A stretch of 64,000 nucleotides of DNA, taken from contig CAZDDW010000005.1 in assembly GCA_964504365.1 (NCBI GenBank), forward strand, positions 1,630-65,629. Direction: 5' to 3'. Below the pieces are notes generated by a model, which worked only from the letters and a program-made list of their open reading frames with translations, did not search any database and was not told where the DNA came from. The translations under genes were made by a program, and so were the position numbers. Shown one piece after another: positions 8,313 to 30,095 of the stretch (position 1 is the first letter of the stretch; each line of letters begins with the position of its first letter). The stretch is from an uncultured Gammaproteobacteria bacterium. GTDB lineage: Bacteria > Patescibacteriota > Patescibacteriia > UBA9934 > CAZDDW01.

Positions 8313-8554
8313 GCGGAACCCTTCAGGGTTCCATTTTGTTTAGCCGGCCACGGATGACTCGGACATTCTTTTTGTGAGAAGCACTCGGCCTATTCGTAGA
8401 ATGATTAAAGAATGTTGTCAGGCCTCGTTCGGGTTCCGCCGGGACCGCCACCGTTAGTTGTAATACGAGATAATGATGTGGGCCCGGCTCCACATGTTCT
8501 CACAAAAAGAATATCCTCGTCATTTATATCTGACGATCAGAAAAGTGGCCGGCC
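8313..8554. repeat. ~210-bp TIR element (GCCGGCCAC...GTGGCCGGCC) with fused upstream terminator hairpin, copy 1
   Basis: near-identical copies at 27855-28300 and 41855-42090; internal inverted repeat ACATTCTTTTTGTGAGAA / TTCTCACAAAAAGAATAT. Confidence 0.8.
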
Positions 8555-8600
8555 AATTAAAAAGACCTCGCTGCGTGCGAGGTTTTGTGGTACGTGAGAT

Positions 8601-8903
8601 CTAGTCTTCGATCGGGATAGTGCAGAATCCTTCGGATTCGCGCGGCCCATCGAAGCTCAGCACGCCGAAAAACGGCTTGTTGTTGTGGGTGCCGAAGATC
8701 AGACCGCGACGATCAGGGAGGAGATGGTCGGTTCCATGGATTCTGACCGATACACTCTTCCAGCCGGTAGGATCAGTTTCGGATCCAGGTGGAATGAGTG
8801 AGATCATGATCGGAGCATCCATGTCCAGCGTTGCCTTGAGGTCGACCATGCTGTGGAACGTGTGCGAGATTCGTGTTGGGAATCGAACTGTATCTGGACT
8901 CAA
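8601..8903 (-). CDS. hypothetical small protein (GC-rich islet), probable TTG start after AAGGAGG
   Basis: ORF 8601-8939; SD aaggagg then attcca TTG; minus-strand TTGACA-17-TATTGT promoter overlapping kef promoter. Confidence 0.4.
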   Translation of the reverse strand: MSPDTVRFPTRISHTFHSMVDLKATLDMDAPIMISLIPPGSETDPTGWKSVSVRIHGTDHLLPDRRGLIFGTHNNKPFFGVLSFDGPRESEGFCTIPIED

Positions 8904-8973
8904 TGGAATCCTCCTTTGAAAACAGACAATATCATACACACCCCCTCATGTCAAGATATGCTATAATTAATCC

Positions 8974-10638
8974 ATGTTACACGAACTATTTTTTCAGATT
9001 GGGATAGTTTTAATTGTTGCGGCCGCGGCTTCAATGGTTATCTTCAGACTGCGCCAGCCTTTAATGATCGGCTACATTATTGCCGGTATTTTTGTTGGTT
9101 CAATTGTTTTTGGTTTTGCTAAAAGCACTGAGGCTTTTCAAGCCATGTCTGAGATCGGTGTGGCTTTCTTGTTGTTTACGGTGGGACTGAACTTGAATTG
9201 GCGTCGGGTAAAAGAGGTTGGTTGGATTTCACTTGCATCTGGTGTTGGTCAGGTTCTATTTACCACGATTATGGGTTATGCGATTGGGCTTGCTGTTGGC
9301 CTGGACTCGCTAACTAGTTTTTATCTTGGTCTGGCTTTCTCATTCTCAAGTACGATTATTATTGTTAAGTTGCTGGCAGACAAAGAAGACCTGGATCGGC
9401 TTTACGGAAAAATTGCTGTTGGTTTCTTGATTGTCCAGGACATTATCGCCATGATTGTGTTGCTGGTACTTGGCGCTCTTTCCGGCGGGTACGAGGTCCA
9501 GAATATTATCACCTTGGCTTTTGGAAAGGGAATTCTGGCCATTATCTTGCTTTGGTTGATTGCGACTTATATCGTTCCGCGCCTAGTTGCTTACGCTGCC
9601 CGGTCGCTTGAGCTCCTGTTCTTGTTCTCAATTGGTTGGTGTTTCTTAATCGCTGGTCTGCTTTACGTGCTTGGCTTCGGGGTTGAGGTTGGTGCACTGC
9701 TTGCTGGCGCTTCACTTGCTGGCACGATTTATCACAACGAGATCAATGCTCGAATCCGTCCGCTGCGTGACTTCTTCCTGATTATGTTCTTTATTATTCT
9801 CGGAGCACGGCTTGAGTTTGCTGCCTTAACTGAGATTTGGCTTCCAGTCCTGGCTTTCTCAGCTTTTGTTTTAATCGGCAATCCAATCGTGGTCATGTTG
9901 ATCATGCGTGTGCTCAAGTATCACCCGCGTACCAGCTTTTTAACCGGAAACACGGTTGGACAGATTAGTGAGTTTGGTTTTATTGTTCTGGCAGCCGGGA
10001 TCGCTTTGGGACACATAAGCCCACAAATGAATTCGCTAGCTGTGTTTGTGGCTTTGATTACTATTGCTGGGTCGGCTTATTTGATCAAGTATAACGAGTG
10101 GATATACGATGCTTTGCAACCAGTGTTGCGCTGGCTGGCTCCTACTGATGCAGATGTTCATGATAAAGCTGATCACAAAAAAGCAAAGCAAGTGCATACG
10201 ACTTTGATCGGATACGACCGTATGGGCGAAACAATTTTGCCAGAGATTCAAAAAATGAAAAAGTCTTTCCAGGTGATCGACTTAAATCCACAGACAATCG
10301 AAGAATTAGATGAAAAGGATATTGCTGCGGTTTATGGTGATGCTGGTGATAGTCGTTTCTTGTCTGAGATCGGGATTCAAAAAAGCAAGATGATCATTTC
10401 AACTATTGCTGATTTTACAATTAGTATTGATTTGTTGGGTTATCTGCGGCGCCGTAGTTATAAAGGGGTTATTGTTGTTGCCTGCCGTACTCCGCAAGAA
10501 GCACACAAGTTGTATGACAAAGGAGCAACCTTTGTTATTGTCCCAAGTATTTTGGGTGCTGAGCGTTTTGGTGATATCTTGAAGAAGAAAAAGGGAAGCA
10601 AGCAATCATGGTTAAAAGCCATTCCTAAAAAAGCCTAA
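8974..10638 (+). CDS. monovalent cation:proton antiporter (CPA2/Kef-type) with C-terminal TrkA-N/RCK domain
   Basis: 554 aa; ~12 TM N-terminal; C-terminal Rossmann-like segment LIGYDRMGETILPEI...; extended -10 TGcTATAAT immediately upstream (near-leaderless). Confidence 0.7.
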   Translation: MLHELFFQIGIVLIVAAAASMVIFRLRQPLMIGYIIAGIFVGSIVFGFAKSTEAFQAMSEIGVAFLLFTVGLNLNWRRVKEVGWISLASGVGQVLFTTIMGYAIGLAVGLDSLTSFYLGLAFSFSSTIIIVKLLADKEDLDRLYGKIAVGFLIVQDIIAMIVLLVLGALSGGYEVQNIITLAFGKGILAIILLWLIATYIVPRLVAYAARSLELLFLFSIGWCFLIAGLLYVLGFGVEVGALLAGASLAGTIYHNEINARIRPLRDFFLIMFFIILGARLEFAALTEIWLPVLAFSAFVLIGNPIVVMLIMRVLKYHPRTSFLTGNTVGQISEFGFIVLAAGIALGHISPQMNSLAVFVALITIAGSAYLIKYNEWIYDALQPVLRWLAPTDADVHDKADHKKAKQVHTTLIGYDRMGETILPEIQKMKKSFQVIDLNPQTIEELDEKDIAAVYGDAGDSRFLSEIGIQKSKMIISTIADFTISIDLLGYLRRRSYKGVIVVACRTPQEAHKLYDKGATFVIVPSILGAERFGDILKKKKGSKQSWLKAIPKKA

Positions 10639-10639
10639 T

Positions 10640-10897
10640 ATGAATGATGTAAATATTTGCCAATCATGCGGCATGCCAATGAAGGAGGAAGTGGACTACG
10701 GGAAGACTGAGGATGGGAGTCCGAGCTATGAGTACTGTGCTCATTGTTTTCAGGAGGGGAAATTTACTTTTGAATGTGGATCAGTGGAGGAGTTTGCCGA
10801 ACATGTGCTTGAGGCAATGGCTGGATCTGAGGAAGCACCTGAAATGGACAAAGAAGAAATGTTGGTTGTTTTGAAAGGGTTGGGGAGGTGGAAGTAA
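10640..10897 (+). CDS. zinc-ribbon domain small protein
   Basis: 85 aa; CxxC...CxxC (CQSCGM ... CAHCF). Confidence 0.5.
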   Translation: MNDVNICQSCGMPMKEEVDYGKTEDGSPSYEYCAHCFQEGKFTFECGSVEEFAEHVLEAMAGSEEAPEMDKEEMLVVLKGLGRWK

Positions 10898-10898
10898 A

Positions 10899-10970
10899 AA
10901 AGTAGAAAGTAGAAGGTAGATAGTAGAAAGATTCAAAATCTTTCTACTTTTAACTTTCTACTCTCTACTA
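10899..10970. repeat. palindromic array of GTAGAxA heptamers (copy 1)
   Basis: agtagaa agtagaa ggtagat agtagaa ag - loop - inverted copies; related arrays at 38006-38083 and 40392-40478. Confidence 0.8.
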
Positions 10971-10974
10971 AAAA

Positions 10975-12101
10975 CAACAAAAAAACAGGACAAATGTCCT
11001 GTAGAAAGTACTCGAGCCCAGGGGCAGCTAACGACGTCGTCGTTAGCGCCCGCTGGGCTCTTGAGGCTGCAGGCCAAGGGTCGGCCTGCGAGGGTCGGTT
11101 TGTTGTCACCGACAGGTCATGTCAGAGCTGGGACTCCGCGGCATGTGCGTAGCCGCGGTTGTATGTGCCAGGAGCACTAATCGAAGCCGTCGATCCACCA
11201 GTACCACATCGTGATACCTCCTCGAGGATGAACATGCAGTGACCGGCCCGTTACGTGGGCGGCGCGCGTCGTCGGTTCGTGGGCGCGCCGCCGCCGTCGG
11301 GGGTGCCGGTCTTGGTTCTTGCTTCTTCAGAAAAAGAGATCAGGGCATATCGGAGCCCCAGGCCGACAGTGGAGTCGCCTTGACTCCTCTGAGCCCGTTC
11401 ATGCGCAGCTGTCATTGTTGGCTGTCTTTTATCAAAGCCTAGCCAGCTGTTAACGAACGAGCTACCGTCTCTCGTAGAGGATCAGCATTCTGCACTCCTT
11501 GGTGCGGTTATTTGCGCCGTGTCCTCGGTGGCGCTCATACTCCTGAGGGGTTGCTGTGGCAAACATGTGCGCTAGCCACGTCGCGCGCGGGCTCACCCCG
11601 CAACGCATCAATAGCCAAAGTGACTCGGAAATCGACGCATGTCACCTCCGTCCTGCACGTCGGCAGGACCATCTTGCCCCTTGGTCCGGGGCTGACCTCG
11701 ATCCCACCTGCCCCGTTGTCCCGGGATCAGGTGCGTGCCCGGCAACCGTGCCAGGCAGGAGCGGCCGCAGGCGGCGGCGGTGGGGGTAGAAGTTCCAGAA
11801 CTCCCCATCGCCGCACACCTGCGACACACTCGTCGTCCACCGGGTAGGTCACCCGGTTCTCCGGAGCGCAGCGCTCGATCAGCGGGCTCATCTCGCCCGC
11901 CGCGCGTTGCGAACCATTGATCTCACCAGCTGTGTCTCGGCGGTCTTGCCGCCGTCAGCCAGTATCACCGGTGTTTTAGGCGGGTTGATCCCCGCGGTTT
12001 ACCGGTTGTTGTTGTGGCCCCGCTGGCCCAGCTCTTCGCCAGCGGATACCGATCAAAGGAACGCACGATCAGCGCGGATGTGTCGCCACCTCCGGAATCG
12101 T
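10975..12101 (-). ncRNA. GC-rich (~65%) ~1.13-kb transcription unit without convincing ORF: candidate large structured ncRNA (alternative: decayed pseudogene)
   Basis: minus-strand TTGACA-17-TATATT promoter at 12108-12136; minus-strand intrinsic terminator caggacatttgtcctg + U-run at 10971-11001; only short overlapping ORFs in all six frames. Confidence 0.4.
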
Positions 12102-12194
12102 GAAGGTAATATAGCACAAAATAGTGCATATGTCAACCCTCAGTCCTAGAAAAAGGCTTATTTTAGTCAAGAATTAAGACCCTGTGGAAAACTC

Positions 12195-12235
12195 TTGACA
12201 GGCTTAAATTAGCACTCTATAATTAAGAGTGCTAA
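12195..12235 (+). promoter_or_regulatory. hrcA promoter (TTGACA-17-TATAAT) overlapping CIRCE operator TTAGCACTC-N9-GAGTGCTAA
   Basis: cttgacaggcttaaattagcactctataattaagagtgctaa; perfect 9-nt inverted repeat with 9-nt spacer. Confidence 0.9.
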
Positions 12236-12242
12236 AACACCT

Positions 12243-12941
12243 ATGAACTCACGACAAGAAGCTGTTCTCAAAGCAATTGTAGAAAATTATATTAAAACCG
12301 CTGAGCCAGTGGGGTCTAAGTTCCTTGCTGAGCGCTGTGGTTTTTCTGTTTCGCCAGCAACATTGCGTAATGACATGGTTGTGCTTGATCAAGAAGGTTT
12401 TATCCGCGCTCCGCACACTTCAGCTGGTCGTGTACCAACTGAAAGAGGTTACGAGTTTTATTTGGCCAGTATCCGCAACATGCGTCGTCAGAGCTCTAAG
12501 CAACAGTTCACTGACGTGGTTTCTGAAGCCGATACTCAAGAAGGTGCGGTTAAACAAGTAGCCAAGAAGTTGGTTGATCTGTCTGGTGAAATGGCACTGG
12601 TTGCTTTTGATCCAAACTGGAGTTACTACACAGGAATTTCTAATTTGTTCACTAAGCCAGACTTTGCTCGACTTGGTTTGACTCAAGAGTTGTCAGAAAT
12701 GATGGATCGTTTTGATGAGGTGGTTAATTCTTTGTACGAGCATCTTCCAGAAGCACCACAAGTAATGATTGGTGGTGAAAACCCGTTTGGCCGCCGCATG
12801 AGTTCGATCATGGTCAAGTATGCCTTGCCAGATGATACATCGGTTCTGATCGGCTTGGTTGGACCGATTCGTATGGATTACAAAAAGAACATCGCTTTAC
12901 TTGAAGAAGCAATTGATTCGCTAACAGAAATTTATGAGTAA
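12243..12941 (+). CDS. hrcA: heat-inducible transcription repressor HrcA (short form)
   Basis: N-terminal wHTH EPVGSKFLAERCGFSVSPATLRNDM; operon position before grpE-dnaK-dnaJ; CIRCE upstream. Confidence 0.85.
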   Translation: MNSRQEAVLKAIVENYIKTAEPVGSKFLAERCGFSVSPATLRNDMVVLDQEGFIRAPHTSAGRVPTERGYEFYLASIRNMRRQSSKQQFTDVVSEADTQEGAVKQVAKKLVDLSGEMALVAFDPNWSYYTGISNLFTKPDFARLGLTQELSEMMDRFDEVVNSLYEHLPEAPQVMIGGENPFGRRMSSIMVKYALPDDTSVLIGLVGPIRMDYKKNIALLEEAIDSLTEIYE

Positions 12942-13404
12942 GAAACAAGACAACCAGATAACTGAACAACCAGATAACTGTGAACAATGCGAAGCATATC
13001 TCACTGGTTGGAAACGGGCCTTAGCAGATTACGATAATTTGCAAAAGGACTTGGCTCGAGAAAAAGAAAGCACACGTTTGTACCTGATCGAAGAGTTGGC
13101 AGATAAGTTAATCCCAATCACGGATCATTTCACGCAAGCCATGAAGCACGTTCCGGAAGGTGCGGAGGGCTGGCTAGACGGTATCAAGATGATCAAAAAA
13201 CAGATGATGGGTGTACTTGAATCATTTGAGTGTTACCCGATCGATCCGGTACGTAAAAAGTTTGATCCAAACGAGCATGAGGCCCTGGGAACTGAGAAAC
13301 GAAAAGATTCAGACGATGAGATAGTACTAGAGGTGGTCGAGCGCGGCTGGAAGCTTGGCCAAAAAGTAATCCGTCCAGCAAAGGTGATTATTAACAAAAA
13401 ATAA
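12934..13404 (+). CDS. grpE: nucleotide exchange factor GrpE
   Basis: 156 aa; coiled-coil N-term and GrpE C-terminal motif; operon context. Confidence 0.85.
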   Translation: MSKKQDNQITEQPDNCEQCEAYLTGWKRALADYDNLQKDLAREKESTRLYLIEELADKLIPITDHFTQAMKHVPEGAEGWLDGIKMIKKQMMGVLESFECYPIDPVRKKFDPNEHEALGTEKRKDSDDEIVLEVVERGWKLGQKVIRPAKVIINKK

Positions 13405-19384: not shown

Positions 19385-20119
19385 CTAGTCCTTGTCGTTG
19401 TCCTCGGGGATGAAGTCGACGGCGTACAACCGGACCTTGATGTCGTGTTCTCCGGTTTGCTCGACTTTGACCTCGACTATTCCGGCCCAGGCTTGGTTGA
19501 GCAGCAGGATCAGTTCTGTTGCCTGTTCCAGGTTCTCGAAGCCGTAGTTTTCGAGGTCTCTGAATTTGACCGAGAAGTCGTTGCATCCGCCGCGACGAGT
19601 GTTCTCGATCATGTGACTGAGTTCTTCCGGCAGTGTCCACCAGCCGTCGGGCTCGAGAGGGAACCAGCCCTTCTCTTCGGCAAAAGCCTGCAGTTCTTCC
19701 GGGATGCACTCCATCAGCTCCCGAACCATGTTCTCCCAGATTCGCTCGGCCAGGATCTGATGATGCCACTGCTCGTAGTGGGCGGCGGCCAAAGGCTTGG
19801 CCTTGACGTAGTCTCTCCAGCCTTTTTCGAACCAGTCCTTGAGGAGCTGAAGAGCCATCTGTGCCGGCTCGACTCCAGGTGCCAGTTGGATCCCCATGGT
19901 ATTTTCCAGAGTCTCCTCAGGAGTAAGCCGGGCCGCCCACCTGTTTTCGTTGTCCTTGGACAGGGTGATGGTCAGTTCAGAGCCGTGGGAGAGGACCACG
20001 ATTTCGGCTTGCGAGCACTCGGGATCCGCTGTTTCGGGGTGACGCACGTCGAAGATTGTTTCGGGAGGGAAGACGTATCCAGTAATCTTGCGAACCCAAT
20101 CCAAATCCAATTGTTCCAT
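19385..20119 (-). CDS. paralog A of GC-rich domain-shuffled family (shared N-domain, distinct C-terminal region)
   Basis: AEIVVLSHGSELTITLSKDNENRWAARL matches D AEVVVAGRNVTIELAEITPNSWAAWEV and B ADIVIDDIEYRLCLRLDSGAWRSHVF; GGAG SD; co-transcribed with B. Confidence 0.6.
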   Translation of the reverse strand: MEQLDLDWVRKITGYVFPPETIFDVRHPETADPECSQAEIVVLSHGSELTITLSKDNENRWAARLTPEETLENTMGIQLAPGVEPAQMALQLLKDWFEKGWRDYVKAKPLAAAHYEQWHHQILAERIWENMVRELMECIPEELQAFAEEKGWFPLEPDGWWTLPEELSHMIENTRRGGCNDFSVKFRDLENYGFENLEQATELILLLNQAWAGIVEVKVEQTGEHDIKVRLYAVDFIPEDNDKD

Positions 20120-20158
20120 GATTGTTCTCCAGTTTCTTGGCCTAGAAAGGACCGGTTT

Positions 20159-20791
20159 CTATCGGTTCAGTAGTGCCTGGCGGAAAGCCTCGAGGACCTC
20201 GCGCGCGGGTGTTGTGGAATCAAAGCCGTATGTACCCCAGTCTTCATCTGTCCCAAGTAGCGTGGCCTCCCATGGTCCAATGATCCCGTGTGACCTTCTG
20301 AAGCTGAAGCTCACCAGCTCGTACATTTGGACCGTGACCAGGAAGGTGTGCTCGAGTTCCGGGTGTGGCATGACTCGATGGTCTCCACCTTGCCAGACCT
20401 GTCCGACCAGAGCATCGAGCTCATCGCGGGTGATCAAGGGCAGGGCCGGCACTTCGGAATGGTTGGGCGTCGTCGTTTCCTGTTCTCGTCTATCGAGGGC
20501 AAAGGAGGCCAGTTCTCTGATGGCTCCGCTGAGTATTTCGTAGGGGTTGCAGGAACCAAATTTATCGGGGACGACCGTGGGATCCTCGTCGGTATTTGCG
20601 TCGTTGATGGTTGCTGAGAAGACATGACTTCGCCAAGCACCAGAATCGAGTCGTAGACAAAGTCGATATTCGATATCATCGATTACAATGTCAGCGTAGT
20701 AGGCATCAGGTTGTCCAAGGCAACCAACCTTCTTTACGTAGCTAGTGAAGGCGTCTCGGATCTCATTTTCGAAGAAGTGTGAATTCATCAT
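20159..20791 (-). CDS. paralog B (shared N-domain + shared C-domain)
   Basis: start MMNSHFFENEIRDAF; C-terminal ITRDELDALVGQVW...TTPAREVLEAFRQALLNR aligns with C and D; promoter TTGACA-17-TATCTT at 20847-20875 (minus). Confidence 0.6.
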   Translation of the reverse strand: MMNSHFFENEIRDAFTSYVKKVGCLGQPDAYYADIVIDDIEYRLCLRLDSGAWRSHVFSATINDANTDEDPTVVPDKFGSCNPYEILSGAIRELASFALDRREQETTTPNHSEVPALPLITRDELDALVGQVWQGGDHRVMPHPELEHTFLVTVQMYELVSFSFRRSHGIIGPWEATLLGTDEDWGTYGFDSTTPAREVLEAFRQALLNR

Positions 20792-21035
20792 TGTCTCGGA
20801 TTGTTGCGAGAATTTTATTGTTGAAATGACCGGAAAATTACTAAGCAAGATAACACAAAAATAAGCTCGTGTCAAGGCAAGCAAGCTTATTTGTAGGGTG
20901 TTTCTTGAAATTAAAGAACCCGCAGCGTTGCACTGCGGGTCTGAGCAAAGAAAGGGCCTTGGGGTTGGTCAAGAATACCTGCTCATTGAGATTGTTCGAT
21001 CAGCAATTATTACTAACAAATCTCAAGGTCGCTAT

Positions 21036-21722
21036 CTAGCCCATCAGTCTCTTCTTCAACCCAACCAGGATTTCTCTGGCCGAGGTGCTGTGATCCGTGG
21101 CACTTTCCAGGAATTTGCTCTGTGGCTCGTGGGCTCTCCACTGGCCGAGCGAAACGCTCATCTCGATGGTCATCAGCTCGAACATGAAGACATCGGCCTT
21201 GAACACCGGAGCTGCATCCGCACCTTCGTTCCTGGTAGCACGCACGTCATCGAAGACCTGCCTGACAGCAGTGTCGAACTGCTCCAGGGTCATGGGCGGA
21301 GGCGCGGGCAACTCTTCGCTCACGGGCGCTGCCGGCCGGCTTGCCTTCCTTGGTGCCGGGCTGGTGCTCTTGCCTTCGCGCAACGGGATGCGGGTGAGCA
21401 CACCATCTTCGGCAATCACACCTTCGGGCGTGACCTGGAAGAGCCAATCGTTGATCTGGATGTAGCACTGACGATCACGGTGACCGTACCAGAGATCGAC
21501 TACACCGTAATGGGCCGAAACACTGGCCGCGCTCAGGTACATGTATGGATCGCGGCGGGTTCCGCTGCCTCTTTCGTAAGGCTGTCCGGTGGATCCCTTG
21601 GAGTACCGACGATGCCGCCGTCTGGCGTCGTAGACATGATCCGGTTTGAGCGTGGTCGTCTGACCCTTGTGCGATGCGTGGATGTTCGGGGCTCGTGCTT
21701 GTGTTTCTCCGAAAGTCGGCAT
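21036..21722 (-). CDS. paralog C (distinct Arg-rich N-region, Pro-rich linker, shared C-domain)
   Basis: MTLEQFDTAVRQVFDDVR...STSAREILVGLKKRLMG aligns with D LSLDQFTAAIERVFNDVR...TTPYDVLKALKAKLMG; promoter TTGACA-17-TATGCT 21782-21810 (minus); terminator 20917-20947. Confidence 0.6.
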   Translation of the reverse strand: MPTFGETQARAPNIHASHKGQTTTLKPDHVYDARRRHRRYSKGSTGQPYERGSGTRRDPYMYLSAASVSAHYGVVDLWYGHRDRQCYIQINDWLFQVTPEGVIAEDGVLTRIPLREGKSTSPAPRKASRPAAPVSEELPAPPPMTLEQFDTAVRQVFDDVRATRNEGADAAPVFKADVFMFELMTIEMSVSLGQWRAHEPQSKFLESATDHSTSAREILVGLKKRLMG

Positions 21723-21862
21723 GGCTAGCTCCTTTGATTGGGTTGCAAGAATCGTGTTAGGAATGAACAGAAATAGATATCAGCATAGCATGAATAAGCC
21801 CGTTTGTCAAGGCAATTAAAACACCCCCACCGTTTCGTCCGGCGGGGGCGTTTGTTCTGGCT

Positions 21863-22555
21863 CTAGCCCATCAGTTTTGCTTTCAGGGCTTTGAGCACGT
21901 CGTACGGCGTGGTATCAGCTGACTCGGCGTGGACGCGGGTATTGCTCACAGGCTCGCGGGCCAGCCACTTGCCGTGCCAGAGACTGAGCTCGATGGTAAC
22001 TGGATCCATCATGACCACCTCAGCCATGAAGGTTGTTCTTTCCAGCCTTGGGCCTCGAACGTCGTTGAAGACCCGCTCGATTGCGGCTGTGAACTGGTCC
22101 AGGCTGAGCTTGTCTTGAGCAACCGGCTCAGGCTCGTTCTTGGGCAAGGGCTTGGCCGTCGTACTTGTGGCCGATGCCTTTTTCCGCCTGTTCGTTGGCG
22201 GTGGCACCCAGGGCGTAACCGCACCACGCATTGGTGCACTTGGCTGGGAGGGTCGAGGACTGGGCTGCGGACGTCCACCAAATTCAAGTACTGTTTTCAG
22301 ACTGACCAAAGCCATCCTGGATGACGACTGACCAGAAACCAGTGCTGGGTAAGGGTTGCCTGGAGCAACTTCCCAAGCAGCCCAGCTGTTAGGAGTTATC
22401 TCAGCTAGCTCGATCGTAACGTTTCTGCCAGCGACAACGACTTCTGCTTGAGGGATCCAGTTGCTACCAAGCGCGATGGTGTGTATTGAGACAACGTGCG
22501 CAAAGATCGCCCTGACTTCTGCTTCGAACCACCTGAGTATTTTGCTCTGGCTCAT
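21863..22555 (-). CDS. paralog D (shared N-domain, Pro-rich linker, shared C-domain)
   Basis: start MSQSKILRWFEAEVRAIF; promoter TTGACA-17-TATGCT 22596-22624 (minus); terminator 21815-21855 nearly identical to terminator of A (19335-19375). Confidence 0.6.
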   Translation of the reverse strand: MSQSKILRWFEAEVRAIFAHVVSIHTIALGSNWIPQAEVVVAGRNVTIELAEITPNSWAAWEVAPGNPYPALVSGQSSSRMALVSLKTVLEFGGRPQPSPRPSQPSAPMRGAVTPWVPPPTNRRKKASATSTTAKPLPKNEPEPVAQDKLSLDQFTAAIERVFNDVRGPRLERTTFMAEVVMMDPVTIELSLWHGKWLAREPVSNTRVHAESADTTPYDVLKALKAKLMG

Positions 22556-22674
22556 GATTGATTCCTGTTGGTTGATTGAATAGAACGAAGAAACCAGCAT
22601 AGCAATTTTTGTGCCGCTTGTCAAGCTTATACACTAGTTGTTTAAGCTTGATTATGTTAAACTGAATCCATTGT

Positions 22675-27854: not shown

Positions 27855-28300
27855 GTCAGAAACGTAGCGGAACCCTTTAGGGTTCCATTTTGTTTTTGGC
27901 CGGCCATGAGGACTCAGACATTCTTTTTGTGAGAAACACTCGGCCAGGACTAGGTAAAGTGAAAGAAAGATATCAAGGCCTCGTTCGATGTTCCGCCGGG
28001 ACCGCCACCTTTATGTGATTAAACGAGATGATGGTGTGGGCCCGGCTCCACGTGTTCTCTCAAAAAGAATATCCTCGTCCTTTAATATGGCCGGCCACCC
28101 ATCTTGCCGTAAGAATAAAATGACGAAGGGTTTTGAATTGAGGTACGATCGGAGGCCGGGCTGCCAATATTTCTTCGAGGTCCCCACAACGGTAATCGTC
28201 CGGCCGACGCCGAGTGAGGCCCGATATCATCCCTTCATCACACCACGAATAGGCCGAACGCTACCACAATCAAAACCCTGAGTCATTCAGTGGCCGGCCA
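27855..28300. repeat. TIR element copy 2 with fused terminator hairpin and a ~200-bp nested insertion bounded by GGCCGGCC
   Basis: module 27898-28098 matches copies 1 and 3; extra module 28099-28300 ends in a second GTGGCCGGCCAATAAAG end. Confidence 0.75.
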
Positions 28301-28332
28301 ATAAAGTTAAAGACTGGTAAGCTTAAGAGGCC

Positions 28333-28421: not shown

Positions 28422-29999
28422 TTGATTGGAGAAAGAATGTCCCGTTACATGCACATCACCATCGGTATCCTGATCACAATGAGCCTGGCCGCAACAGCCG
28501 TGGCCAAGCCGCGCATCATGCGCGCGGAAAATTTCCATCGTACCTGCGACCTCGAGTCCTTCCAGAACTACAACGACCTGCAGCTGGAAACCGAGCATTT
28601 CACTCTGGGCGCGCCGATCTGTATGGGCGAAGGCTCTGTGGCCTACGACCCGGATTATCTGAGTAGCGCCGATCGTCTGGACAGAAGGCTGCTTCACGAG
28701 GAGATTCGAGTGGTCAGCCAGGCTTACCTGGATGTACTCGAGCGCATGGTCCATGCCAACTGGGGTCGTGACGATTACGCCGACGCCTACCTGGGCTCGT
28801 CCATCCGTCAGCTACGTCTAGGCATGTGCTTTCCACACCGCACCTATGAGGTAGACGATGGCAGCGTACGCATGTGGGCTCACTTCGTGTCCGATCCGAG
28901 TGGCGCAATCAAGGGGCCGAGCTACCTCAACCTGCTTCTCGAGCGAGCGGTCGAACTGCGTGACCGTGATGCAGTCGAGGCCTTGCTCTATCTGTTCACG
29001 GTCATTCGCAAGAATGATCCCATTAGCGCAGCCAGCAACTGCGAGTACTTGCAGAACAGCCTGTTCGAGAACGAGCTGGCCGGCTACCTCTACGCCGGAG
29101 ACTTGGAGGCGGCTGATGCTTTCGTCCAGGAATTCGGTTTCCTAGCCGACTCAAGTGCCTTCTCGGTCTACGAGTTCTATAGTGATCGTGTCTGGGGTGA
29201 CCAGGTCAAGATGGTCGCCAGTGACATCTACGAGGATCACCTGCAGGCTGGTGACTATGATCTGGCCGATGCTTTGGTCAAGCACTACGGACTGGCTCCA
29301 CCACAGTGCGCCACCAGCATCCAGGAAACCATGCGCCAGCACTTCAGGCAGGCCTTCCTGGACTACGATTTGGATACTCCGGATGAGGTTCTGGAGATGA
29401 TGGCTCGTTACGACTACGACGTCAAGATGGTCGAGTGGGCTCGTGAGTGGGGCTACGCCTACGCTGGCTACGCCCTGATGGAGCCATGTTCGGAGCTCGA
29501 ACCACGTTCGGATGAGCTGGACTGCCGATGGCAGATCGAGCTGCGTCTGGATGACATGCCCATGGCCAGTAGGATCCATGTGGTCGAGGCTTCGCTCAGC
29601 TGGTACAGCGGAATTACTGTCGACGATCTGGTGTACAAGCATCAGCTGATGAAGGCCCTCAAGGTCGACATGGACCTGGTCATGCCCAAGCTGGCCGAGG
29701 AGCTCAAGGAGAATGCTCAGCTGGCTTTCGGTGATCTCCTCGATGGGATGGATCATTGGCAGTACACCACGGCCATCTACTACGCCATGGAAGAGATGGG
29801 TTACGAGCCTTTGCTCGATTACCCGAATCCGGTGTTCAGCTGCGACATTCTGCCCTACGGGAACTCGTCGCGCGAGTCCGGGATCTGGTTCCTCCAGTGC
29901 GCTGGCGGCATCGACTACGTCGAGCTCATTGCCACTGGCGAGCAGCACGGCGAGGACTACCGTCAGGCCGTAGAATCCGGTCAGACCTTCATGGACTGA
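28422..29999 (+). CDS. hypothetical secreted protein (signal peptide), GC-rich islet
   Basis: 525 aa; N-terminal signal ITIGILITMSLAATAVA; acidic, Tyr/Asp-rich; long antisense ORF 29151-30002 judged a GC shadow. Confidence 0.55.
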   Translation: MIGERMSRYMHITIGILITMSLAATAVAKPRIMRAENFHRTCDLESFQNYNDLQLETEHFTLGAPICMGEGSVAYDPDYLSSADRLDRRLLHEEIRVVSQAYLDVLERMVHANWGRDDYADAYLGSSIRQLRLGMCFPHRTYEVDDGSVRMWAHFVSDPSGAIKGPSYLNLLLERAVELRDRDAVEALLYLFTVIRKNDPISAASNCEYLQNSLFENELAGYLYAGDLEAADAFVQEFGFLADSSAFSVYEFYSDRVWGDQVKMVASDIYEDHLQAGDYDLADALVKHYGLAPPQCATSIQETMRQHFRQAFLDYDLDTPDEVLEMMARYDYDVKMVEWAREWGYAYAGYALMEPCSELEPRSDELDCRWQIELRLDDMPMASRIHVVEASLSWYSGITVDDLVYKHQLMKALKVDMDLVMPKLAEELKENAQLAFGDLLDGMDHWQYTTAIYYAMEEMGYEPLLDYPNPVFSCDILPYGNSSRESGIWFLQCAGGIDYVELIATGEQHGEDYRQAVESGQTFMD

Positions 30000-30095
30000 C
30001 AACTACACGCGAGCGACTTGCGTTCGAGCATCTGAAAAGGTGCTCTTTTTCTTTTTAAGCTCAGGTTTGGCTTATTCGTCTGGCTCTGATAAAAT

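Follow-up and report, generated by a model that had tools for sequence, protein, structure and literature searches.

What does a GC-rich block of about 1.1 kb encode if it has no real protein open reading frame (ORF) and is bounded by a promoter and an intrinsic terminator? The block in question lies on the minus strand between a zinc-ribbon gene and the hrcA-grpE-dnaK-dnaJ operon, in a 64,000-nt stretch of contig CAZDDW010000005.1 (assembly GCA_964504365.1) that is referred to here as the window. The host falls among Uhrbacteria-like Patescibacteria according to HrcA homologs. A first-pass annotation, made from the letters of the sequence, proposed a large structured non-coding RNA (ncRNA) or, instead, a decayed foreign gene that is still transcribed. 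The explanation preferred here, with roughly even confidence, is a structured RNA that stands on its own and is linked in its fold, stability or activity to ribosomes that load or stall at tiny ORFs; these ORFs follow Shine-Dalgarno (SD) motifs. Coordinates of the features are collected in Table 1.

Boundaries and composition of the unit

The block has a GC content of 62.8% at 11003-12100, compared with a mean of 45.7% for the whole window. The value of ~65% given in the first-pass annotation holds for 11500-12050 only, not for the block as a whole. Only short ORFs had been reported, and this is correct: the longest in any frame has 111 aa (plus strand, 11512-11847), and each of the six frames has 6-15 stops in ~390 codons, near the random expectation of ~11 for the composition of the block.

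The minus-strand promoter scores 11 of 12 consensus matches and has the TG extension; its -10 hexamer, TATATT, is at 12113-12108. Its elements are exactly where they had been placed before, and they would set the start of the RNA at about 12101. The intrinsic terminator at the other end is likewise borne out, stem and U7 tract alike. The long inverted repeat near the 3' end exists, but lies ~10 nt from the coordinates first given (11003-11050). Across the region there are six promoter-like sites (1.4 +/- 1.2 in shuffles) and eight terminator-like sites (2.2 +/- 1.6 in shuffles). Beyond the terminator, the AT-rich hairpin probably terminates transcription of the zinc-ribbon gene and presents a further obstacle to read-through on the minus strand. 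The block has no paralogs within the 64-kb window.

Coding potential and known RNA families

Three-base periodicity (P3) is 2.0 in the block, compared with 9.5-44 in the real genes of the window, and local frame plots are flat. Stops of mixed types occur in every frame; a recoded gene is therefore unlikely. No Pfam domain was found in the six frames of the block. A concatenated six-frame search of 5.8 billion proteins gave no match among 8000 candidates, a set that was possibly filled by low-complexity words. With this periodicity, and with neither a Pfam domain in six frames nor a protein homolog, a decayed and still-transcribed foreign gene is unsupported. The 1.1-kb body also has no detectable homolog by BLASTN. 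The only 45-codon SD-led ORF loses its AUG to CUG through a single-nucleotide polymorphism (SNP) within the species.

Three other candidates were rejected. The 111-aa ORF was considered as a protein; an exhaustive HMMER search returned two proteins, both artefacts that sum ~26-bit matches over 12-21 tandem Ig-like repeats. Foreign mobile DNA was considered; plasmids and phages were searched by 'distant' blastn and viral contigs by two exact-segment scans, all without a match. A 10-nt identity of the RNA (11979-11970) to the hrcA start region is within chance expectation.

Known RNA families do not account for the block. Searches of the window with Rfam 15 at gathering score find two tRNAs and nothing in the block, including OLE, GOLLD, ROOL, HEARO and raiA. 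At E<=1 with permissive filters over 10000-13000, there is nothing inside the block; sub-threshold noise from miRNA models falls on the AT-rich hairpin at 10901-10969, outside the block and far below gathering score. The gaps of five relatives match no Rfam family either. ARAGORN finds no tRNA or tmRNA in the block, and covariance models and ARAGORN together detect no RNase P RNA, tmRNA, 6S RNA or signal recognition particle RNA there. Group II introns, including ORF-less forms, are not indicated, as no Rfam intron family matches at E<=1 and the RNA begins ACGAUUCC, not GUGYG. These Rfam and ARAGORN results agree with the first-pass annotation, which could find no signature motifs of RNase P, tmRNA or group II introns.

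Folding of the predicted RNA

The whole transcript has a minimum free energy (MFE) of -552 kcal/mol, compared with -456 +/- 10.5 kcal/mol for dinucleotide shuffles (z = -9.2, sense strand). Excess local structure runs through the 5' half (Table 1), and the long 3' hairpin with the terminator reaches z = -9.1 in its 140-nt window. The sense z is more negative than the antisense z in all seven transcripts tested. In these models the RNA is clearly hairpin-rich.

The proposal of a large structured ncRNA is upheld in part. The ORF-less predicted unit on the minus strand, the lack of a known family, the sense-strand z-score and covariation in the RNA of relatives (see below) all fit it; a single global fold does not emerge. 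The proposal of an RNA that is purely non-coding may also be incomplete, since SD-led tiny ORFs are enriched in the RNA.

Tiny ORFs behind Shine-Dalgarno motifs

The transcripts of all lineages compared (given as L numbers) contain ATG ORFs of 6-11 codons behind an SD-like pentamer; the three in the window (tiny ORFs a to c) have 10, 8 and 10 codons. All three have their stop codon 0-4 nt from the start of a stable hairpin, and the layout in relatives is alike. Two such ORFs each are found in L031 (MFDRHI and MTFIRYIQ), L039 (MYGRHV and MNFIRYKR), L036 (MPPYPSGFL and MHASGFV) and L038 (MHLSGFV and MRMSYPLLYPG); L034 has one (MNLSGFT). The C-terminal G-F-x-stop of tiny ORF c recurs in L034, L036 and L038.

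SD-ATG ORFs number 12 in five independent lineages, compared with 3.0 +/- 1.8 in dinucleotide shuffles (P<1/2000). Eleven of these have 11 codons or fewer, where 1.0 +/- 1.0 are expected (P<1/2000). The window alone has three SD-led tiny ORFs, compared with 0.36 expected (P ~0.01). By strand, 17 SD-led ORFs are sense and one is antisense.

Within types, changes fall mostly at third codon positions, and length and stop codon are kept. The [S/D]-G-F-x-stop core varies between GGA, GGG and GGC for glycine and between TTC and TTT for phenylalanine. In the x-F-I-R-Y-x-x-stop core, ATC varies with ATA and TAT with TAC. The stop codon varies between TAG and TAA.

Table 1. Features at and around the predicted RNA gene (window coordinates; order follows the minus-strand transcript, with upstream features first)
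Feature	Position	Strand	Description
hrcA promoter	12195-12235	plus	TTGACA 12195-12200, TATAAT 12218-12223; overlaps CIRCE operator 12209-12235; conserved right boundary
Palindrome-like site	12155-12168		GGCTTATTTTAGTC (plus strand); between the two back-to-back promoters; consensus GNCTAAAWWTWNGC
Divergent sigma-70-type promoter	12105-12136	minus	-35 TTGACA 12136-12131, 17-nt spacer, extended -10 TGcTATATT 12116-12108; from consensus scan
Predicted RNA gene	10979-12101	minus	1,123 nt, 62.2% GC, without real protein ORF
Conserved RNA 5' end	12085-12102	minus	CACGAUUCCGGAGGUGGC; sole part of transcript in common with relatives (L031/L032)
5' half with consistent excess local structure	11546-12105	minus	z = -2.4, -2.9, -4.8 and -2.3 in four consecutive 140-nt windows
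Tiny ORF a	11608-11649	minus	SD GGAGGUGAC, AUG, MRRFPSHFGY, stop; ORF 11640-11608; hairpin begins 4 nt from first base of stop codon
Tiny ORF b	11462-11500	minus	SD AAGGAG, 6-nt spacer, AUG, MLILYERR, stop; ORF 11488-11462; stop codon inside hairpin
Weak internal terminator-like hairpin	11331-11360	minus	followed by U-run; from terminator scan
Tiny ORF c	11177-11223	minus	SD GAGGAGG, 7-nt spacer, AUG, MWYWWIDGFD, stop; ORF 11209-11177; hairpin begins within stop codon
Long near-perfect hairpin near RNA 3' end	11014-11060	minus	arms 11014-11036 and 11038-11060, 23 nt, 87% complementary
Intrinsic terminator	10979-11002	minus	7-bp stem (11002-10985), 4-nt loop, U7 down to 10979
AT-rich hairpin	10901-10969		33-nt arms; between RNA terminator and convergent zinc-ribbon gene

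A conserved slot in related genomes

In distant relatives (31-52% HrcA identity), the CIRCE operator upstream of hrcA is the sole shared feature. At 70-80% HrcA identity the order is a MacB-type ABC (ATP-binding cassette) operon, a Na+/H+ exchanger gene, the zinc-ribbon gene, a gene-free gap and hrcA-grpE-dnaK-dnaJ. The gaps are 492-1345 nt long and have a GC content 5-20 points above the local genome; the block in the window exceeds all of them in GC. An RNA running from promoter to terminator is predicted to fill the slot in every relative examined. Alignment from CIRCE outward gives the same architecture: CIRCE with the hrcA promoter, the GNCTAAAWWTWNGC site, the divergent promoter, a GC-rich segment, a long hairpin and a U-run.

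The divergent promoter is kept as GGTTGACA-N17-TGnTAnnnT in six of the seven lineages. The first ~20 transcribed bases (CACGATTCCGGAGGTGGC) are common to the window and L031/L032; this 5' end has the form CACGATTCCGGA[AG]GTGGC. The palindrome-like site is kept in all seven aligned lineages (window, L008, L031, L034, L036, L038 and L039). It is conserved as well as CIRCE, and L038 has a perfect GGCTAAATTTAGCC. This site is a candidate operator for a regulator of the hrcA promoter, the RNA promoter or both.

The contigs of the closest relatives (94% identity in HrcA, 92% in the zinc-ribbon protein) stop at the element; this explains why no close homolog of the body was recovered. A wider search of metagenomes with the conserved 5' 18-mer gave at least 120 matches and was rejected as a source of homologs, as those listed are chance matches in GC-rich soil contigs without promoter or CIRCE context.

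Several variations on the slot are seen in relatives. L038 (8000 down to 6777; gap 1-1224) has two tandem promoter-RNA-terminator units, the second promoter being GGGTTGACA-N17-TATTCT at about gap position 708. The similar 5' ends of the two units suggest that the slot can expand by duplication. One relative with 73% identity (JGI 3300072015) has an 82-aa minus-strand gene inside the gap upstream of hrcA. Several others (L039/L040, L034, L026 and L033) have short tandem repeats of 60-230 nt between CIRCE and the hrcA start: ATTGTTA(A/G) units in L039 and TTGAAAAT units in L034, with L039/L040 carrying them at gap 1-230 in RNA-sense numbering. These repeats are absent from the window. HrcA (12243-12941) has only ~232 aa in the window and across the clade. 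Typical HrcA proteins have ~340 aa, and the protein of this clade would be a shortened form.

Covariation in family A

Family A comprises the RNAs of L031, L032, L039/L040 and L162-L164; the covariation alignment took in L031, L032, L039 and L163. The consensus fold has 54 pairs, and 94% of cells are paired, compared with 34-48% when the partners are slid. Both partners have changed in sixteen pairs; the corresponding figure is 5.3 +/- 1.9 for shuffles (0 of 500) and 1-3 for slid partners. The RNA cores of L031 and L039 are 85% identical, compared with 77.5% for hrcA DNA and 77-81% for the DNA of hrcA, dnaK and the exchanger gene. To judge by these comparisons, the locus in relatives is one that encodes a functional RNA with a covariation-supported structure.

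The window RNA resembles family A in its slot, divergent promoter, 5' end (with L031/L032), GC elevation, tiny ORF followed by hairpin, and long terminal hairpin with U-run. It differs in its body, which has no sequence or covariance-model similarity to the family, and it is about twice as long and more GC-rich. Covariance models of family A modules R1 and R2 recover all members at E<=1e-18 and find nothing in the window element at E<=10. The window RNA was therefore rejected as a family A member by body (covariance models, blastn and k-mers); slot, promoter and 5' end do match.

Hypervariability of the element

Along 3.1 kb that start at hrcA-grpE and reach 258 nt into the locus, L031 and L032 have 99.87% identity. 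The middles of their RNAs are unalignable by BLAST, and the 3' parts are 92% identical. By eye, loops are kept in the middles and whole stems are exchanged.

At least five related populations (among L008, L026-L030 and L161-L164) have contigs that end inside the element or within 35-220 nt of it. The L008 contig stops just past the divergent promoter, those of L026-L030 stop near the hrcA promoter, and that of L161 stops 34 nt past the zinc-ribbon stop codon. From these breaks we infer that several alleles coexist in those populations.

L001 belongs to the same species as the window and differs from it by only two SNPs over 12.7 kb. Both (11660 and 11672) are in the element; the probability of this by chance is ~0.008. 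In the RNA sense, one lies in a hairpin loop and the other in the unpaired AUG of the 45-codon ORF.

Interpretation

The preferred explanation can be set out as follows. The locus would be a separate RNA gene of ~1.12 kb on the minus strand, without a conventional protein, in a slot between the zinc-ribbon gene and the hrcA-grpE-dnaK-dnaJ operon that is fixed in one clade of Uhrbacteria-like Patescibacteria. In every lineage, a conserved strong promoter, divergent from that of hrcA, would drive a hairpin-rich RNA of raised GC content, closed by a long hairpin and an intrinsic terminator. Between lineages, and even between near-identical strains, the body of this RNA may be turned over or swapped, giving allelic 'types'; that of the window would be a unique, expanded type. 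The types would be alike in design rather than in sequence, with stable hairpins and 6-11-codon tiny ORFs that have a strong SD and a hairpin at or just after the stop. The RNA would act as RNA; ribosomes loading or stalling at the tiny ORFs may remodel adjacent hairpins or protect the RNA, and its fold, stability or activity would thereby be tied to translation status.

A broader proposal is offered tentatively, as possible and some way short of probable. The locus may be a hypervariable 'RNA cassette' slot of the candidate phyla radiation (CPR), an unrecognised class of element in which a fixed promoter and 5' handle precede interchangeable, strain-specific structured RNAs whose tiny ORFs recruit or stall ribosomes.

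Several points weigh against the preferred explanation. Transcription, translation of the tiny ORFs and the coupling of translation to folding are the parts that we infer; transcription is read from the predicted promoter and terminator and from how well they are conserved. Beyond its first ~20 nt, the body of the window RNA matches no relative by blastn or by two covariance models, and k-mer sharing is at chance. With no homolog of the body, the support for its own fold is thermodynamic. Folding of the antisense strand is good too (z = -5.8), as it should be for GC-rich palindromic DNA. The 420 nt at 11126-11545 have z ~0 in 140-nt windows, no better than shuffles, so that one global architecture of the OLE, GOLLD or ROOL kind is not demonstrated. 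The covariation result comes from four family A sequences, and the structure was derived from the same four. A neutrally evolving or junk region would look hypervariable too.

The tiny ORFs are subject to further reservations. The pattern was spotted before it was tested, and the list of SD motifs was the choice of the analyst. An SD-like pentamer at -16 to -4 is found in only 6 of 35 genes (17%, compared with a background of 4.7%); the survey covered, across the whole window, the 35 ATG-start ORFs with a length of 150 aa or more, together with the zinc-ribbon gene. Most window genes start after AT-rich leaders. Initiation in this organism thus appears largely SD-independent, and translation of the tiny ORFs is putative. 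The rarity of genomic SDs could mean that they are needed specifically for ribosome loading on GC-rich structured RNA; it could also mean that the motifs in the tiny ORFs are no translation signals.

Alternative explanations

The first alternative is a large ncRNA of the OLE, GOLLD and ROOL kind, purely structural or regulatory and functional through its fold alone; its SD-led tiny ORFs would be incidental or would be RNA motifs. We consider this a serious though somewhat doubtful alternative. In genomes that are richer in AT, long GC-rich intergenic regions have proved to predict structured ncRNAs, and large ncRNAs have been found through this signature (PMC6429828). The z-score of the whole transcript and the covariation in the RNA of relatives agree with such an RNA. 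Several SD-like tracts are also paired in the predicted folds, and SDs are rare in the genome.

Like OLE, GOLLD, ROOL, HEARO and raiA, the window RNA is several hundred to ~1,000 nt long, GC-rich relative to its genome, ORF-less, hairpin-rich and equipped with its own promoter and terminator. The resemblance drawn in the first-pass annotation concerned size and GC contrast; a shared global architecture is not demonstrated. The known families have a core that is conserved across phyla and held in distant taxa, whereas the window RNA has no covariance-model match and the bodies in this slot are unalignable even within a genus. Unlike those families, the locus has only the promoter and the ~20-nt 5' end in common between lineages, swaps its bodies between close strains and carries recurrent SD-led tiny ORFs. 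The tiny ORFs also weigh against fold alone: the combination of SD, ATG and short ORF is ~4-fold (all) and ~11-fold (<=11 codons) above dinucleotide shuffles and is strand-specific, and variation at third positions leaves intact the two cores (G-F-x-stop and F-I-R-Y) as well as the exact length of the ORFs.

Non-functional DNA is unlikely. It could be a foreign high-GC fragment or ancient pseudogene that was inserted where a promoter and a terminator were already resident and is transcribed fortuitously, or else a spacer that evolves neutrally and fast. The body in the window is a singleton without homolog, its GC content is above that of any relative's gap, SNPs are concentrated in the element and the locus is a replacement hotspot, all of which would be consistent with such DNA. 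Recently acquired DNA is mostly coding, and neither the coding periodicity nor the protein similarity expected of it is present. Non-functional DNA also fits poorly with the z-score of -9.2 and with three SD-led tiny ORFs that abut hairpins, as in the design of relatives. The slot is also always filled with a promoter-to-terminator RNA in the relatives examined, and the sequence is identical in at least six samples.

A micro-peptide mRNA is quite improbable. Its products would be peptides of 6-11 residues, such as strain-specific signals or peptides that act on the ribosome, and the hairpins would only stabilise the transcript and tune translation. Such an mRNA would account for the enrichment of tiny ORFs, for their conservation at the peptide level and for allelic hypervariability like that of pherotype-style loci; all relatives have a conserved operon for a MacB-type ABC exporter ~2.5 kb upstream. 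Less than 10% of the transcript would be coding, however, and hairpins outside the ORFs show covariation and stronger conservation than adjacent genes. The locus has no linked genes for processing, export or a receptor, and peptide sequences are wholly different between types.

A leader-peptide attenuator or regulated antisense RNA, in which translation of tiny ORFs controls terminator read-through into the convergent zinc-ribbon and Na+/H+ exchanger genes, is very unlikely. The msrDL leader encodes the hexapeptide MYLIFM, and a ribosome stalled at its stop codon prevents terminator formation (PMC10314930). The window RNA has the order of such ribosome-dependent attenuators, from tiny ORF to hairpins to terminator (PMC10314930), and tiny ORF c is rich in Trp, Tyr and Phe, like amino-acid leader peptides. 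A strong SD, an ORF of few codons, a hairpin at or after the stop and a downstream intrinsic terminator are shared with trpL, ermCL and msrDL. Unlike these, the window RNA has several tiny ORFs and is ~10 times the length of a leader; a leader of 1.1 kb would lack precedent. There is no regulated gene downstream on the same strand, the zinc-ribbon and exchanger genes are convergent, and two successive hairpins (10979-11002 and 10901-10969) block read-through, so the unit cannot be called a conventional attenuator.

An assembly chimera or contaminant, which the sharp GC discontinuity might suggest, is refuted for practical purposes, since the locus is 99.9-100% identical, with both junctions spanned, in seven contigs that were recovered through exact HrcA and zinc-ribbon proteins from three data sources (independent JGI, ENA and Logan assemblies).

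Other elements in the window

A repeat of ~245 nt occurs in three plus-strand copies (84-88% identical) in gene-poor gaps at 8319-8563, 27859-28084 and 41853-42101; there is a partial inverted copy at 28200-28301. Its ends are complementary (GCCGGCCAC...GTGGCCGGC), and the consensus fold is rod-like with 58 pairs, few of which are variable. Spurious ORFs on its minus strand give near-identical peptides (MEPGPH...FFNHSTNRPSASHK). The repeat has no match in Rfam; it could be a miniature inverted-repeat transposable element or a multi-copy small RNA.

Two further stand-alone minus-strand units adjoin copies of this repeat. One (42096-42362) has a TTGACA-17-TATACT promoter (11 of 12 matches) and a terminator at 42126-42105. 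Its RNA of ~233 nt is closed by a long 5'/3' stem (MFE -87.4 kcal/mol, z = -3.4) and has no Rfam match at E<=1; this unit, which adjoins its repeat copy directly, is a candidate novel small RNA. The other (8565-8954) has a TTGACA-17-TATTGT promoter with TG (8954-8926), a terminator at 8583-8565 and an ORF of 82/112 aa (8601-8939) with no Pfam domain on record.

GC-elevated stretches (57-62%) are also found at 19385-22624 and 28422-30002. These contain long overlapping ORFs on both strands, such as 19385-20119 (minus) with 19445-20173 (plus) and 20898-21728 (plus) with 21036-21722 (minus).

Relation to known systems and significance

SD-led minigenes can cause peptidyl-tRNA drop-off, sequester tRNA or tune neighbouring translation (PMC2490762, PMC8708949). 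Together with leader-peptide attenuators such as msrDL, they are the closest precedents for the proposed mechanism. Minigenes of the lambda bar type, engineered ORFs of 3-8 codons and axe-txe resemble the present ORFs in being SD-led ORFs of few codons on strongly transcribed RNA; the three in the window have the strong SD and short ORF of this group. Minigenes are isolated elements of phages and plasmids, whereas the ORFs described here are embedded in a long structured chromosomal RNA and show conservation at the peptide level.

RNAIII of S. aureus, with hld, is a structured regulatory RNA that contains a 26-codon ORF; its locus encodes its own sensor and processing proteins. The window RNA is similar in being a structured RNA with small ORFs, divergent from the neighbouring operon, at an allelically variable locus. 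Unlike RNAIII, it has no sensor or processing partners at its locus.

Long GC-rich, ORF-less structured RNAs with an intergenic signature are a known kind of element, and no described family fits this one. The combination seen here, in a CPR clade, of a conserved slot, promoter and 5' end with bodies that are swapped between alleles and with SD-led tiny ORFs that recur next to hairpins is, to our knowledge, without precedent.

CPR (Patescibacteria) genomes are ~1 Mb in size and have very little non-coding DNA. A gene-free, strongly promoted slot of 0.5-1.3 kb that is kept across the clade is therefore expensive and probably functional. If the preferred explanation is correct, a phylum in which ncRNA biology is almost blank would gain an orphan large RNA, and few other RNA genes would combine allelic hypervariability with a conserved promoter and design. 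The locus would also be a natural system for tiny SD-led ORFs in structured RNA, in a host whose genes otherwise seldom have Shine-Dalgarno sites. In practice the locus, at which metagenome assemblies break, could be used to tell strains apart. If the slot is indeed an RNA cassette, diversifying selection and allelic recombination would suggest either that it takes part in conflict or recognition, be it of phage, host or kin, or that it helps to control translation under stress, beside the heat-shock operon.

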